Shown: positions 1 through 6,533 of the stretch, in pieces
Layout: each line of letters begins with the position of its first letter
Position numbering within the stretch: position 1 is the stretch's first letter
Source of the DNA: a virus
Taxonomy: Duplodnaviria; Heunggongvirae; Uroviricota; Caudoviricetes
Virus record (IMG/VR): IMGVR_UViG_2548876862_000011
Coordinates: 1-6,533 of that record
Length of the DNA: 6,533 nucleotides
Direction: 5' to 3' (one strand)
Notes under the pieces: model-generated
Told to the model about the DNA's origin: nothing
Database searches by the model: none
Seen by the model: only the letters and a program-made list of their open reading frames with translations
Position numbers and translations under genes: made by a program

Positions 1-3000
1 GGGGAAAGCTTTGCCCACTGTTTTAACGAGATCGCCTTCAATCTGGTTCGCGGACAATTTTCCCAGAACCCGACAGTTCTCGTTAATCGTGACGTTGTTG
101 AGCGTCCCGGAGTTCGCATTCACGTTACCGCTGATATCGGCATTTTTCGCCGTCAGCCGCCCGTCCGGTGTCAGGGAAAATGCCGGAGGATTACCGCCGC
201 TGGTAATGGTGGGAGCCGTCAGATATTTCAGGAACACTTCATTCATAAATATCTGATCGCCCTGACCAACAAACATCGGCTTTGTGTTGCCATTCGCAGG
301 ATTAATCATCGCAATCCTGTCTGCCGCCAGCAGCACCTGACTCTGCATTCCTGCTGGCGTATTCTCAATACCGGCACCGATACCCGCAATATAAAGGCGT
401 CCGTCCTGCATCTGCTGCAGTTTCACGGCCCACATGCTGTTCAGGTTATTATTTGTATCAACCTGAACTTTCTGTATCTGCTGGATTGCCGCACTCTGAT
501 TTTCCAGTTTTTTATTGACGGTCTGCGTGATTTCATTGCTGACATTCGTAATGGACGTCCTGATTTCAGCCAGGTCCGGCGCAAGCTGACCGTTATCAAT
601 CTGCGTCCACAGCTCCTGGGCCAGATGTGTTTTCCCGATTTCTCCTTTGAAAAAATCCAGGTAACCTTCCGCATCATCGCTCGCCCGACCGACAGCCTCC
701 ACGAATGCCGATTTGCCAACAGTATTCACACTGCGGATATAAAAATAATAATCATGGCCCGGTTTGATATTGATACTGGCAGCTATCCAGTACAGCGCCG
801 AGCCAAGATAGCGGGCTGCGGTTTCAACCTGCCTGATATCCGCAATCCGCTTTTCCGAGAACCAGAACTCAAACTGTACCGTCGGGTCATAAACGGCAAG
901 ATGCGGCGTGGCGGTTATCTGAAAATAGCCCGGCGTCAGCTCAATCCGCGACGGTGCTGCCGGTGCGGCAATCCGGAAGGTGGTGGTGGCAGGTTCACCC
1001 TGCTGGCCATAGCTGTTTATCGCCCGCACCGTCAGGGTGTATTCCCCGAGCGGCAGGCCGCTGAAACGGTGCTCCGTGTCTGCGGTGATGGCGGTGGTCA
1101 CCAGTCTGGCATCCGTTCCCTTACCACTGGTCAGGCGCAGACTGAAGCGCACGCCCTTCACCACCCGCGGCGTGTCCCATTTAGCCTGCGCCAGATACTG
1201 GCCGTCAGCTGCACTCACCTCCACCGTCAGGTGCTGTACTGCCGGTGGGATGACGCTGTTCAGGGAACCTGACTGCGGCTCAAAGCGGGCACCGTTATCC
1301 ACGATGGCTTCTTTTTCCGGTACGTGCTGCACCGCCGTGATGGCAAAGGTGCCGTCCGTGTTTTCCCGGACGGAGACACAGCGGAACAGGCGACGGCGCA
1401 GTGACGGCAGGGAGAGTCCCCACACCCCGTATGTCTCCACACCATCAGGCAGGGTACTGACCTGTATCCGGTCCGGCGCGGGGTGTGCGGTGATGTCCAC
1501 ACTCACCGGCTTACCGCTGCCGTTAATCAGGTTCACCGCCGATGTACCTGTCTCCGGCAGGGTAACCTCACGGTCCAGCGTCAGGGTGCGGGTGGCAGCA
1601 TCAATGGACAGGACACGTCCGCCGGTCAGGGTCCCGGCATAGTCATTATCACAGATTTCAATAATGTCACCGGGTGTGTGCCGCAGCCCCTGAGACCCGA
1701 GCGTGAAATCCACCGTCTGCGTTTCCAGCAGTTCGGTCTTTATCACCCACAGTCCGGCACGGTGGGCCTGACCGCGGCTGGTACAGCCGAACGCGTCCAT
1801 CTTCAGCAGGTTGCGTCCGTAGCGCAGTATGGCTTCCGGGTCTTCCACCAGTTCCGTGGAGGTCTGCCAGCCGTTCTGCGGGTCGGTGTAATTCACCTCC
1901 ACCGCCGTGTGCCGGTCCTTCAGGGCACTGAAGCTGTAGCGGAATCCCACGCCGTTATCATCCACCACCACATCGCTGTTGGTGTACGGCCACACCACAT
2001 CCGACGGGCGGTCCTGAACGAACGTCAGCGTCTGGCCGTTCCATACCGGCATACAGCGCATCGCCGAGCAGAAATCACTGAGAACGTCCCACGCCTTACG
2101 CTGTTGTGACAGGTACGCATTAAAGGTCATCCGCGGCTCTGTGCCCCCGAAACCATCCGGGACCGTCTGGTCGCAGTACTGCCCGATGGCATACAGCGCC
2201 CACTTGTCCACATCCGCCGCCCCCAGACGTTTTCCCATGCCGTAGCGCGGGTGAGTCAGCATGTCCCACAGACACCAGGCCGGGCTGTTGCTGTATGCCG
2301 GTTTCAGACTGCCGTCCCAGATACCACTGTACGTGCGTTTTTCCGGGTCATAGTTTGACGGCACCTGGATGATGCGACCGCGGATATGGTAGTTCACCGT
2401 CATCTGCTGGCCGCCGAACTGCTCCGCATCCACCTGCAGCCCCACAATGGCCGTGTTCGGGTAGCACTGTTTCACATCGATGATTTCGGTGTATGACGAC
2501 CACAGCGTCTTATTCTGCAGCTGGTCCGTGGTGCTGTCCGCCGTCTCCCTGACCATCCGGATGTTAAAGGGCCGGGGAGGCAGATTATCCAGAATCACCG
2601 AGGCCAGGAACTGTGAGGTGGTCTTGCCGTTAATGGTGACGTCCTTTTCTGTCACCCAGTTACCGTTACGCTGTAACTGAATCAGCAGGCGGACGGATGC
2701 CGGGTTACGGTCACCCTTTGAGGTGGTCTCCACCAGTGACTGCACCCCGAAGGTAACCCGCAGGCGGTCAATGTTCGCGGACGTAATGGTGCGCGTCACC
2801 GGTTTTGCCTTCGTCACTTCCACGCCCAGTCCGGTTTCAGCTCCGGAGGACTCAAAGCCTTCCGGTGGTGTCTGCTCCTGCTCCCCGGCACGCCAGACCG
2901 CGGTCACACCGTGTATCACGGGATTGCCGTCCGTGTCCGTCAGTGGGGTTTTGTTCACCAGAATACTCTGCAGTCCCTTCACCGGACCTTCTATCGGTCC

Positions 3001-3096
3001 CTCACCAATCGCATCAATCACACTCATCATCTGCGTGGATTTGAGATTATCCTTCGCCTCACGAGGCGTGTGTGCCTTACCGCCACCTTTTCCCAT
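1..3096 (-). CDS. J: Central tail fiber / host-specificity (tip attachment) protein J-like; N-terminal 1032 codons, 3' end beyond the window
   Basis: Hand translation of the minus strand from ATG at 3096-3094 ([42 protein letters not shown]...) stays open for all 1032 codons to position 1 (3096 nt, ends ...GKAFP). SD-like GGGGAAGG sits 4 nt upstream. Long stretches resemble lambda gpJ as I recall it (e.g. [72 protein letters not shown]). Missing from the ORF track because no stop lies in the window. Confidence 0.9.
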
Positions 3097-3198
3097 ACAG
3101 CCTTCCCCTGAATAAATTAACCGCCACTTGCCATTCCGTACAGAAGTCGGATATCCTTCGCCCGAAAAGCATGAAACACATTTCTGCCATGCTAAAGA

Positions 3199-3236
3199 GA
3201 AACCCCGGTATCAGCAGATACCGGGGTTTTCTTTCA
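3199..3236. terminator. Perfect 10-bp GC-rich hairpin with U-rich tracts on both sides; candidate bidirectional intrinsic terminator
   Basis: ccccggtatc (3203-3212), loop agca, gataccgggg (3217-3226); A/T pairs extend the stem at the base. Plus-strand 3' flank is ttttctttc; minus-strand 3' flank reads tttctcttt. Confidence 0.45.
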
Positions 3237-3301
3237 TGCCCACCGATAATCCTGTTGGTTAAAACCGGTAATGGCATAAAAATTCTGAATATCTTCACAT
3301 T

Positions 3302-3329
3302 TTCACACACTGACTGTGGCGCTTATAAT
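3302..3329 (+). promoter_or_regulatory. Candidate sigma70 promoter: -35 TTCACA, 16-bp spacer, -10 TATAAT
   Basis: TTCACA at 3302-3307 (5/6 match to TTGACA), TATAAT at 3324-3329 (6/6), A/T-rich region immediately upstream (3261-3300). Points toward gene I, antisense to the tail operon. Confidence 0.4.
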
Positions 3330-3335
3330 TTCGCT

Positions 3336-3433
3336 GCGTTAGTGTTTTTTTGCCCGAGTAACAAAAACAACTCCTTAACATTGATCTTCATTTGTCTGTC
3401 CCCGCAGCTCCGCGATCACTGCGGGATTTTTTT
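3336..3433 (+). ncRNA. Hypothetical small RNA of about 100 nt defined by the promoter at 3302-3329 and the terminator at 3401-3433
   Basis: Promoter-to-terminator spacing fits a short transcript starting near 3336. No ATG and no SD on the plus strand within it. Contains CUCCUU (3371-3376), complementary to a Shine-Dalgarno sequence. Inferred from sequence only. Confidence 0.25.
3401..3433 (+). terminator. Rho-independent terminator, plus-strand orientation only
   Basis: Stem cccgcag (3401-3407) / ctgcggg (3419-3425), 11-nt loop, followed by attttttt (3426-3433). On the minus strand the hairpin is preceded rather than followed by the T-run, so it should not terminate tail-operon transcription. 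Confidence 0.6.
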
Positions 3434-3438
3434 ATGTT

Positions 3439-4119
3439 TTATCCCTGTCGCCCGACAACCACGACCGTTCCGCCCCCGCCTTCATCACGGGTGCTGATGT
3501 CCTGGGATATACGGCGGGAGCCAACCAGCATTTCCCCGTAAGGCACCGGCATCGGGTTCCCCTGGGCAATCATGTTATCCAGCGAGGAAAAGTACGTGTT
3601 CTGTCTGCCGTTATCCGTTGCGCGGTAATCCGGTGTTTTTGCCTTCGGGGCCAGCATCTGGGCCACACCGCCCAGAATCATGCTGGCTCCAAGTGAAAAC
3701 AGCATCGTGGTGGCAGAAAAACCACCGGCTGCCAGGGCTGAACCCCATAACGCCATTGATGCCCCGGCAGTGAAGAAAGAGCCCACGATGGCTGCCGCCC
3801 CCAGCACAATCTGCAGTCCACCCTTTCCGGCCCCGGCCAGTCGCGGCACAATGTGGATGACCGTTCCCTCACCCAGCTGTTCGTGAAGACGGGCGTACAC
3901 CGCCTCCGGTGCCGTGTCATAACCGGCAATACGTATCTGGTACCAGCCTTCGTTCATCTGACGGCGAAAGCCCGGCACCTGTAACGACAGCGCCCGGATG
4001 GCTTCCGCTGCCGTGTTCACATACAGGCTGAGGCGGCGGCCAAATCGTTGCAAATCCCCGTGAAGGCAGATGCGTGCCAGTGGCGGTGACGCCAGACAGA
4101 ATGCGTTCGTCGTTGCCAT
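3439..4119 (-). CDS. I: Tail assembly protein I-like (ubiquitin-like N-terminal domain family), 226 aa
   Basis: ORF with ATG at 4119-4117 and stop TAA at 3441-3439; SD-like GGAGAGG about 10 nt upstream. Protein (MATTNAFCLASPPLARICLHGDLQRFGRR...GGGGTVVVVGRQG) resembles lambda gpI as recalled. Starts 103 nt inside the 3' end of K in another frame. Confidence 0.9.
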   Translation of the reverse strand: MATTNAFCLASPPLARICLHGDLQRFGRRLSLYVNTAAEAIRALSLQVPGFRRQMNEGWYQIRIAGYDTAPEAVYARLHEQLGEGTVIHIVPRLAGAGKGGLQIVLGAAAIVGSFFTAGASMALWGSALAAGGFSATTMLFSLGASMILGGVAQMLAPKAKTPDYRATDNGRQNTYFSSLDNMIAQGNPMPVPYGEMLVGSRRISQDISTRDEGGGGTVVVVGRQG

Positions 4120-4760
4120 TTTTCGGAATACCTCTCCCGTTTACTCAGTTGTTCAGGCAGATGGTGAAGCAGCTCACCGTTGCCGCAGTAAATGGCGGCA
4201 TGGTTCGGTACCGAAGCACCAAAGCAGCACAGCAGAATATCGCCCGCCTGTGCAGAGGACAGGGGCACCCGGTAAAAGCCGGTGACCGCCATATTGTCCA
4301 GGTAAAGGTTCTGACCGTTGCGCCACCAGTCATCCTCGCGATGAAAATCCGGCATTTCAGTCCCCGCCAGATGATAAGCATCCCGGAACAGCGTGTAACA
4401 GTCCGTCACCCCGTGCTCAAAGCGCCGTCCTGTCAGATGTGGCACACAGCGGAATTTGTGAATGTCACCCCGGCAGACCAGCCACCAGGGCAGTGCGCTT
4501 TTTATCTGCAGCCGCCGGTCAGCCTCGCTCAGCCAGGGCAGCCCACCGGGATGACTGTGGACCAGTGCCACAATCTCCCCCTGCATCTCTGCCCGCAGCC
4601 AGTCTTCCGGTGCGATACGAAAATACGCCTCCGGCTCTGCAGAAATATTCACACAAGGGATATACCACTCCCCCTCCGGCGTGCTTATCACGAAGCCGCA
4701 CGACTCCGCAGGCACACACCGCCGGGCATGCGCCAGAATCGCTGATTCTGTCTGTGTCAT
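4017..4760 (-). CDS. K: Tail assembly protein K-like with JAB/MPN (JAMM) metalloprotease motif and NlpC/P60-like region, 247 aa (long form)
   Basis: ORF ATG 4760-4758 to TGA 4019-4017. JAMM signature H-S-H-x7-S-x2-D present as HSHPGGLPWLSEAD (residues 68-83), with an upstream Glu in PAESCG. Downstream Cys/His-containing region (GVTDCYTLF ... HAAIYCG) fits NlpC/P60. Starts 5 nt after the L stop, with no obvious SD, suggesting translational coupling. Confidence 0.85.
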   Translation of the reverse strand: MTQTESAILAHARRCVPAESCGFVISTPEGEWYIPCVNISAEPEAYFRIAPEDWLRAEMQGEIVALVHSHPGGLPWLSEADRRLQIKSALPWWLVCRGDIHKFRCVPHLTGRRFEHGVTDCYTLFRDAYHLAGTEMPDFHREDDWWRNGQNLYLDNMAVTGFYRVPLSSAQAGDILLCCFGASVPNHAAIYCGNGELLHHLPEQLSKRERYSEKWQRRTHSVWRHRHWHASAFTGICNDLAAASACM

Positions 4761-4765
4761 TGGAT

Positions 4766-5464
4766 TTACTGCGAAAGTTTGTTAATGGAAAGGAAACCGC
4801 CAAAATTAGCCACCATGCCGCGCATCTCACACCCGCGCATGCACTTGCTGCATCTGTCCTTACGGATATCGGTGGTGGGTTTATCGAACTCATCCGCCAC
4901 CGCAGGACCGTTATACCCGCATTCATCTCCCCGGTAATCCCACATACAGGTGTTCGCCAGCATGATGCGACCGGGAAACAGCGCCCCATCCGTCTCGGTC
5001 GGTGTAGCCAGCACAAACGAGGCCGTCATGGCTGTCAGCTGCGACATCTGCTCCACCACCCAGCGGTCACTCAGCTCCTGCTCCGGGTCCGCCTCCGGAT
5101 TGCCCGCAACGAAATTCACCGCATCCAGAAAACGGGCATACACCCGGCGGCGGACCACCGTGGCCCCCACCAGACTCTGCAGGTCCTCCGCCATCCCGGT
5201 GACAAGGCCAAACAGATTGGACACCGTCAGCGACGGGCGGGCACTGCTGCCCCGGCCGTTCATCTCAAAGCCGCTGCCGTCAATCGGGTATGCCTCATAC
5301 TTACGCCCCTGCCAGGTGACCGGCTCCCCTTTTTCATTCAGCTCATTACAGAAAAAATACCGCTCACCACCCTGTACCGTCAGGTCGATTTCCCAGAGTA
5401 CCACCCGCGGTGACTGCTCTGACTTAACCGACTCGTTCAGACTTTCTTCGCGAATATCCTGCAT
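4766..5464 (-). CDS. L: Minor tail / tail tip protein L-like, 232 aa
   Basis: ORF ATG 5464-5462 to stop at 4768-4766. Start overlaps the M stop by 1 nt (TGATG). SD-like AGGTGGTG upstream. C-terminal cysteine cluster (C173, C182, C205, C208, C212). Same length and position as lambda gpL. Confidence 0.9.
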   Translation of the reverse strand: MQDIREESLNESVKSEQSPRVVLWEIDLTVQGGERYFFCNELNEKGEPVTWQGRKYEAYPIDGSGFEMNGRGSSARPSLTVSNLFGLVTGMAEDLQSLVGATVVRRRVYARFLDAVNFVAGNPEADPEQELSDRWVVEQMSQLTAMTASFVLATPTETDGALFPGRIMLANTCMWDYRGDECGYNGPAVADEFDKPTTDIRKDRCSKCMRGCEMRGMVANFGGFLSINKLSQ

Positions 5465-5805
5465 CAGTTCACCACCTGCTCAATCGTACAACTGAAATCA
5501 CTGTACCTGGCGTTATCTGTGACGCTCCACTCCCGGCACACCACCCTCACCGTCCGGTTATGTTTCGGCGGTCGCCACAAAAAGGCACGGTAACCACCAT
5601 GCCAGGATAAAAATTCATCCAGCCAGCGCCGGGTTGGTTCATCCGTCACCCGGAACACCGCCTGAAACGTCTTCAGTCTGGCATTAAGTCCCGTCGGTCG
5701 GCGCTGTTCATAACCGTCACCAAACCGAACCCTCACCACCGACGGTTTCTCACTCACCTGCATCCCTTCACGCGGGACCAGATGCAGCGTTTTTATCTCA
5801 GCCAC
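5464..5805 (-). CDS. M: Minor tail / tail tip protein M-like, 113 aa
   Basis: ORF from GTG at 5805-5803 (GGAGG SD 8 nt upstream) to TGA at 5466-5464; overlaps the H stop by 8 nt. C-terminus ...CTIEQVVN matches my memory of the lambda gpM C-terminus. An internal ATG at 5763 is an alternative start but has poor SD spacing. Confidence 0.85.
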   Translation of the reverse strand: MAEIKTLHLVPREGMQVSEKPSVVRVRFGDGYEQRRPTGLNARLKTFQAVFRVTDEPTRRWLDEFLSWHGGYRAFLWRPPKHNRTVRVVCREWSVTDNARYSDFSCTIEQVVN

Positions 5806-6481
5806 TCAGCATTCCTCCGTCACGTCGCATGGACAGCATCACCGCCTGCACCCGCTGGTCAATCAGCTGCACAAGACTGCCTGCCGCCTCCGCCCCTATC
5901 TGTCCGTTAGCCCCGTCATTCTGAATGGCGATGTGGTAGACCGGGGAATACACCAGACCGGCACTGCCGTTCATACTGCCCACCGCGCGTACGCCCAGCG
6001 AGCCATCCGCCGCCCGGGTCAGGGGCATAATGGCTTCAGGTCCGGCTTCCCCCATCAGCCCGGCCCCTTTTGCAAACGCAAAGTACGTGGGCGTGTCCAC
6101 AATGCTGTTGCTGTACGCACTCAGGTTTGCCGAGGTATACACGCCGCCTTTTGCATTGGCCACCGCACCGCCCAGCCAGTCACCAATGCTGCCAATAAAT
6201 CCTCCCGCACCGGACATACCGTTTGCCGCCGTCTTAATTCCGTTGACAATCGCGGCATTCATAAGAACTTTTGAGATTTCCTGCAGTACGGATGAGGCCC
6301 AGTTGCGCCATTCCACTTTGTTTCCGTTCAGCATCTCCGTGATGTTATTCACCATCCCTGAGATACCCTCCGTCGCAAGCTGTGCTGCCTGTGAAGCGTA
6401 ATCGGATGCATTGTCCACCCAGTTACTGAGCCCCTCCTGCAAGCCTTTCTGCCAGTCCGCACGCTGCGCATCCGATTCGTA
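5798..6481 (-). CDS. H: Tail tape measure protein H-like, C-terminal 227 codons only; reading frame closed upstream by a stop at 6482-6484
   Basis: Frame is open from 6481 down to stop TGA at 5800-5798 (...YESDAQRADWQKGLQEGLSNWVDNASDY...RRDGGMLSG). Gly/Ala-rich C-terminal region and position immediately upstream of M fit a lambda-type tape measure C-terminus. The track's start at 6442 is a TTG codon, not a real start. No start codon or RBS for a full-length protein lies in the window. Confidence 0.8.
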   Translation of the reverse strand, partial: YESDAQRADWQKGLQEGLSNWVDNASDYASQAAQLATEGISGMVNNITEMLNGNKVEWRNWASSVLQEISKVLMNAAIVNGIKTAANGMSGAGGFIGSIGDWLGGAVANAKGGVYTSANLSAYSNSIVDTPTYFAFAKGAGLMGEAGPEAIMPLTRAADGSLGVRAVGSMNGSAGLVYSPVYHIAIQNDGANGQIGAEAAGSLVQLIDQRVQAVMLSMRRDGGMLSG

Positions 6482-6533
6482 TTAGACGTCAACTAGTTTT
6501 GCCGACTCGCGCCAACTATACTGGCCGCACCCT
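6482..6533. other. Non-coding segment at the window edge that interrupts the H frame; possible breakpoint or junction
   Basis: Stops in all three minus-strand frames within 6482-6533 (the H frame is closed by TAA at 6484-6482). Contains GACGTC (6485-6490) and ACTAGT (6492-6497). Confidence 0.3.

Follow-up and report, generated by a model that had tools for sequence, protein, structure and literature searches.

The stretch analysed here (the window) comprises 6,533 nt of tailed-phage DNA carrying the distal part of a lambda-like tail operon on its minus strand. It raises the question of why the reading frame of the tape-measure gene, H, is lost close to the right-hand edge, and whether the gene was cut by a deletion, an insertion element or a prophage integration junction, or whether the edge is an assembly or vector artefact.

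The H remnant and the neighbouring tail genes

Profile searches and identity comparisons gave the following tail genes in the window:

5798-6479, minus strand: 3' remnant of the lambda-type tape-measure gene H, running from the third base of codon 854 through codon 1080 to the stop (Pfam, NCBIfam and identity)
5464-5805, minus strand: M, minor tail protein, directly downstream of the H remnant (Pfam Phage_min_tail, E 2.5e-28)
4766-5464, minus strand: L (Pfam Phage_tail_L)
4017-4760, minus strand: K (Pfam Prok-JAB and NLPC_P60)
3439-4119 or 3439-4020, minus strand: I (Pfam Lambda_tail_I)
1-3096, minus strand: J, tip attachment protein (Pfam GpJ domains)

The H remnant matched Pfam Tape_meas_lam_C (E 2e-19) and scored 167 bits against NCBIfam TIGR01541 (cut-off 104.75), and positions 5700-6479 were 100% identical to annotated tape-measure genes. 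Its C-terminal lambda tape-measure domain, together with its position upstream of M-L-K-I-J, marks the gene as H. The lambda tape-measure protein, gpH, is 853 aa; it has the Tape_meas_lam_C domain in common with the gene studied here and is likewise followed by M-L-K-I-J in lambda order, whereas the closest intact relative, the H gene of strain 97-3250 (locus L003), is longer (3,243 nt, 1,080 codons, 1080 aa), and only the last 226 codons are present in the window. With 226 of 1080 codons the gene is not a complete ORF, and the initial annotation, which had expected roughly another 600 codons upstream, set the missing part too low: it amounts to about 854 codons, since the closest intact gene has 1080.

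Position of the break

Translation of the minus strand showed an H frame of 227 codons that runs open from 6481 down to its stop at 5800-5798 and is closed by a TAA at 6484-6482, with stops in the other two minus-strand frames at 6518-6516 and 6495-6493, all of which agrees with the frame reading in the initial annotation. Positions 5700-6533 were searched against phages (50,697 records) and E. coli (5,426 complete genomes), and matches were found in 98 phage and 1,674 E. coli records; all listed alignments in both sets, many of them at 100% identity, ended at query base 780, which is window position 6479. The same break at 6479 was seen in a search with the whole window, for which the best matches covered 1-6479 at 99.6% identity.

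The window end reads ...GCATCCGATTCG|TATTAGACGTCAACTAGTTTTGCCGACTCGCGCCAACTATACTGGCCGCACCCT. Across the same break the intact H of strain 97-3250 reads ...CCGATTCG|GCATAAAA or, over a longer stretch, ...CCGATTCG|GCATAAAAGG..., and an uninterrupted H would be expected to continue past 6479/6480 as GCATAAAAGGCTG... Because the intact gene of 97-3250 reads through the break, G6479 is part of H. The breakpoint is 6479|6480 and the foreign segment is 6480-6533; a foreign-looking tail is present as first described, but its length is 54 nt and not 49 or 52, given that the alignments end at 6479.

The terminal 54 nt are one end of ISEc10

Two features account for this segment, the second of them contained in the first:

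6480-6533, minus strand: terminal 54 nt of ISEc10 (IS21 family), istB-proximal end (IRR), non-coding (identity to full copies); the TAA that closes the H frame lies in it
6480-6527, no strand assigned: 48-nt imperfect terminal inverted repeat (IRR) (inverted-repeat search on the full element)

The segment was 100% identical to positions 3503-3556 of a locus from strain 06-00048 (L001), where it lies beside istB and istA genes that PGAP annotates, there and likewise in CFT073, as 'IS21-like element ISEc10 family'. Against natural records the 54-mer gave hundreds of matches at 100% (E about 1e-19), and a match of this length is, judged by the alignments, far beyond chance. Among complete E. coli genomes, 591 had matches to positions 6470-6533, at 777 places in total and up to 22 per genome, and matches to the ISEc10 end were also found in 565 plasmid records, while 398 E. 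coli records matched it at ≥99%. Most of these matches were 99-100% identical and lay under many unrelated genes on chromosomes and plasmids; both the terminal sequence of 6480-6533 and the mobility, seen as many copies in unrelated contexts, are those of ISEc10 and the IS21 family.

The inverted-repeat arms of the full element (L001, 3503-3550 and 5865-5912) are 48 nt long, 71% complementary and placed exactly at its ends; the full right-end repeat is inside the window, and the partner arm was seen in other copies only. The distance from the tip to the istB stop is 65 nt in full copies, so that this stop would fall about 12 nt past the window end, and istA and istB are expected to run on the minus strand at this site, the same as H. 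The IS adjoins the third base of H codon 854 (...AAFYA|ESDAQ...), inside a gene that more than 1200 genomes carry uninterrupted. Truncation at an insertion-element junction, one of the options originally put forward, is what was found: 6480-6533 is the right end of ISEc10.

A prophage integration (att) junction, also among those options, or a tape-measure gene that is naturally shorter and ends here would be consistent with the abrupt loss of homology and with nothing more. The break falls in the middle of the tail module, where the gene is continuous in the genomes just mentioned; what flanks it is the end of an IS, not chromosomal DNA of the host; and the remnant lacks the TMP_3 and Phage_HK97_TLTM domains that are present in N-terminal H pieces of relatives. 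We give such an origin next to no credence.

An outward-facing TTGACG on the minus strand (6492-6487), a perfect-like -35 hexamer, lies within the IRR, 7 nt from the IS tip, and GACAAT sits 8 nt inside the left end of ISEc10. A junction promoter is known in the tandem or circular form of IS21, and TTGACG and the left-end GACAAT could, to go by their sequence, make up a junction promoter in tandem or circular ISEc10. No -10 follows TTGACG in the H flank, and there is therefore no hybrid outward promoter at the junction; neither a sigma-70-like promoter nor a terminator-like site was found in 5700-6533.

The contig edge and a second assembly

Reverse-complemented, contig AIBM01000076.1 (6533 bp, assembly GCA_000446785.2) is identical to the window over its full length, so that the window edge is the contig end, and the earlier suspicion of an assembly edge was well founded. 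Apart from this source contig, the H|IS junction was found in a single further draft contig at NCBI; it was absent from the listed matches in complete E. coli genomes and phage records, and from GTDB representative genomes, JGI metagenomes and IMG/VR. Contig CBJYJD010000087.1 (GCA_966512395.1) matched the window at 99.89% over 6533 nt (7 mismatches, no gaps). Its junction between H and the IS is identical, and it starts 127 nt into the element, the extra 73 nt being nearly identical to the matching part of the 06-00048 element, which covers the istB 3' end.

De Bruijn assemblers stop a k-mer length into multicopy elements, and 54-55 and 127 nt are typical k-mer sizes. Because two independent assemblies stop 54-55 and 127 nt into the same repeat, a chimera and a read error are ruled out, and the proposal that a sequencing error or indel created the stop is contradicted by the presence of the same junction in the independent assembly. 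The position of the junction at the very end of a draft contig and the occurrence of two 6-bp restriction sites, GACGTC (6485-6490) and ACTAGT (6492-6497), within 13 bp might still be taken to indicate that the 54 nt are an artefact, either an assembly chimera or a vector or linker at the contig end, and the initial annotation had considered an engineered linker or vector junction for this reason. Both sites, however, belong to the 48-nt inverted repeat with which the IS naturally ends, and hundreds of natural genomes carry that repeat unchanged; the 54 nt occur in hundreds of isolates as natural IS sequence and are not synthetic or vector DNA; and the junction recurs in the independent assembly, which differs by 7 mismatches and runs a further 73 nt into the IS. 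An artefact is, on this evidence, extremely improbable.

Full ISEc10 copies and the mode of insertion

Two full ISEc10 copies were read in detail, those of strain 06-00048 (L001) and CFT073 (L002). Both are 2,410 bp and contain istA and istB; the element starts TATTAGACGTC... and ends ...GTCGTCTCATA. IstA and IstB of the full copies passed the NCBIfam IS21 cut-offs (226 bits vs 160 and 267 vs 200), and IstB matched Pfam IstB_IS21. The copies lie inside split genes and are flanked by direct duplications, 8 bp in 06-00048 (GTTGAGCG) and 5 bp in CFT073 (GTTTG). In the IS21 family, IstA (a DDE transposase) and IstB (an AAA+ helper) insert the element and duplicate 5-8 bp of the target.

ISEc10 is active and disrupts or silences genes (PMC7482066, PMC8764528): new insertions arose experimentally and were selected in CFT073 (PMC7482066), and the element was found in the afa promoter of ST131 (PMC8764528). 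The latter study gives the insertion size as 2,530 bp (PMC8764528), as against 2,410 bp measured here in two copies. The 54 nt in the window are identical to the istB-proximal inverted repeat of ISEc10 and the element itself shows no differences; the difference lies in the site, an insertion at H codon 854 being absent from all 5426 complete RefSeq E. coli genomes, so that the collections searched offer no finished sequence spanning it.

We consider it very likely that a copy of ISEc10 lies inside H of a lambdoid prophage of a pathogenic-type E. coli and that the contig ends in this repeat, with simple insertion as the probable route. The istB-proximal end of the element would have come to abut the third base of codon 854, splitting H and leaving a 226-codon C-terminal part (Tape_meas_lam_C) that would have neither a start nor a promoter of its own. 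A short-read assembler would be unable to walk through the multicopy repeat and would end the contig a k-mer-like length into the IS. We infer that a complete IS follows beyond the edge, that the 5' part of H is on its far side and that the contig break was caused by the repeat; expression of the H remnant and of M-J would then depend on read-through.

Simple insertion makes predictions about both sides of the element, starting from the following bases:

6472-6479, no strand assigned: target bases abutting the IS, CCGATTCG, of which the last 5-8 are the predicted copy of the target-site duplication

In the coding direction of H, simple insertion predicts ...CAGCCTTTTATGC followed by CGAAT(CGG) and then by TATGAGACGACAATAAC of the other IS end, and this other end (CTGAGTTATTGTCGTCTCATA) should be joined to ...TTTTATGC plus the 5-8 duplicated bases. 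The far (istA-side) junction, sought as a degenerate pattern with 4-8 bp duplications, was absent from GTDB representatives and JGI metagenomes, which are also without the first junction, so that this absence says little. Five N-terminal H fragments, predicted from the 97-3250 allele with 4-8 bp duplications, were absent from the protein collection in an exact look-up, although this requires an exact 854-residue match to a borrowed allele and a miss is weak evidence. A homology search, which returned 90%-cluster representatives only, gave 'partial' H proteins of 842-876 aa; these carry the C-terminal domain and so are not the expected truncated fragment.

With a single IS junction in view, loss of the 5' part of H by deletion has to be weighed as well. 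In an IS-mediated rearrangement, a deletion or inversion involving two ISEc10 copies, or a deletion next to the element, would have taken away or relocated the first 854 codons of H together with the head-proximal genes, and the rest of H would not lie beyond the IS. The multicopy state of ISEc10 in many strains offers substrates for recombination, the exact look-up did not retrieve the predicted N-terminal fragment, and relatives carry other IS elements in tail genes, such as ISEc22 in J of 97-3250, which shows that these prophages decay via IS activity. The two full copies read, on the other hand, are both simple insertions with target duplications in split genes, and the failed look-up counts for little when the 854 residues come from the allele of another strain. 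We regard a rearrangement as unlikely, though not negligible, and simple insertion remains the preferred account.

The protein collection does hold a 185-aa ORF from the ATG at 6355, which an exact look-up traced to AIBM01000076.1; alternative calls for the remnant, of 214 aa (from TTG) and 206 aa (from GTG), were not on record in this exact look-up. A 185-aa 'H C-terminal' ORF has been called in many other contigs (L004-L009, L011, L012), in which H is split without an IS and the ORF comes after N-terminal pieces of 820-896 aa. These split genes in other strains suggest frameshifted or prematurely stopped alleles, or assembly errors. The appropriate annotation for the H remnant is a pseudogene fragment, not a 185-aa gene.

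J, the I-J spacer and pasB

The start of J is intact at 3096, and the left contig end cuts the gene about 125 codons short of its 1157-aa relatives. The sister contig CBJYJD010000087.1 reads through the J end into lom. The left end is probably another repeat-induced break, the C-terminal regions of J being shared among co-resident lambdoid prophages. In the closest complete-genome relatives (97-3250, L003 5160-7610, and others among the top matches) the IS66-family element ISEc22 is inserted in J, and it is missing from J of the window; different IS elements therefore inactivate the same prophage lineage in different strains.

The spacer between I and J (3097-3438, 342 nt) is AT-rich, with 43.6% GC vs 57% for the window. 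It contains, at 3351-3433 on the plus strand and thus antisense to the tail operon, the gene of a known Hfq-dependent prophage sRNA, pasB (83 nt). This sRNA was discovered in EPEC E2348/69, and its northern probe, AATCCCGCAGTGATCGCGGAGCT, has been published (PMC8550237, supplementary table); the window contains this probe sequence on its minus strand. Compared with E2348/69 the pasB locus has one mismatch, at sRNA position 27 (window 3377), the position that distinguishes PasB from PasB-2 (2026 preprint). The gene is flanked by a strong promoter-like site, TTCACA-16-TATAAT, at 3302-3329 and by a terminator hairpin at 3409-3425 followed by a T-run. No Rfam family reached its gathering score in the window, and Rfam contains no pasB model. 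The J-proximal half of the spacer (3097-3280) differs from E2348/69 and was found in full in 13 phage records only. At about 3195-3235 the minus strand has a GC-rich hairpin, CCCCGGTATCTGCTGATACCGGGG, and then TTTCTCTTT; for the tail-gene strand this would resemble a terminator separating I from J.

Implications for the prophage

Inactivation of lambdoid prophage tail genes by IS elements is common in EHEC/EPEC-type genomes, where IS629 and IS66-type insertions in tail genes are known. The present case likewise has a mobile element in a lambda-like tail gene and differs in the IS and in the target gene.

Where a contig ends abruptly in 'foreign' sequence about one k-mer long, the cause is usually a collapsed repeat rather than anything biologically odd, and the contig described here can be scaffolded to another contig ending in ISEc10. 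It is conceivable, although quite improbable, that an IS-mediated rearrangement detached the tail-tip module (M-L-K-I-J and pasB) from the remainder of the prophage, leaving it to be transcribed by read-through from istAB. Were this true, the tip genes and the sRNA would have been kept while the phage was immobilised, and the allele would be common to a lineage, given two assemblies 7 mismatches apart.

The locus is a known insertion sequence inactivating a lambdoid prophage tail gene; mechanistically this is nothing new, and its significance beyond annotation is small. A prophage without a full tape measure should not build tails by itself, and the one on this contig is to be scored as tail-defective.
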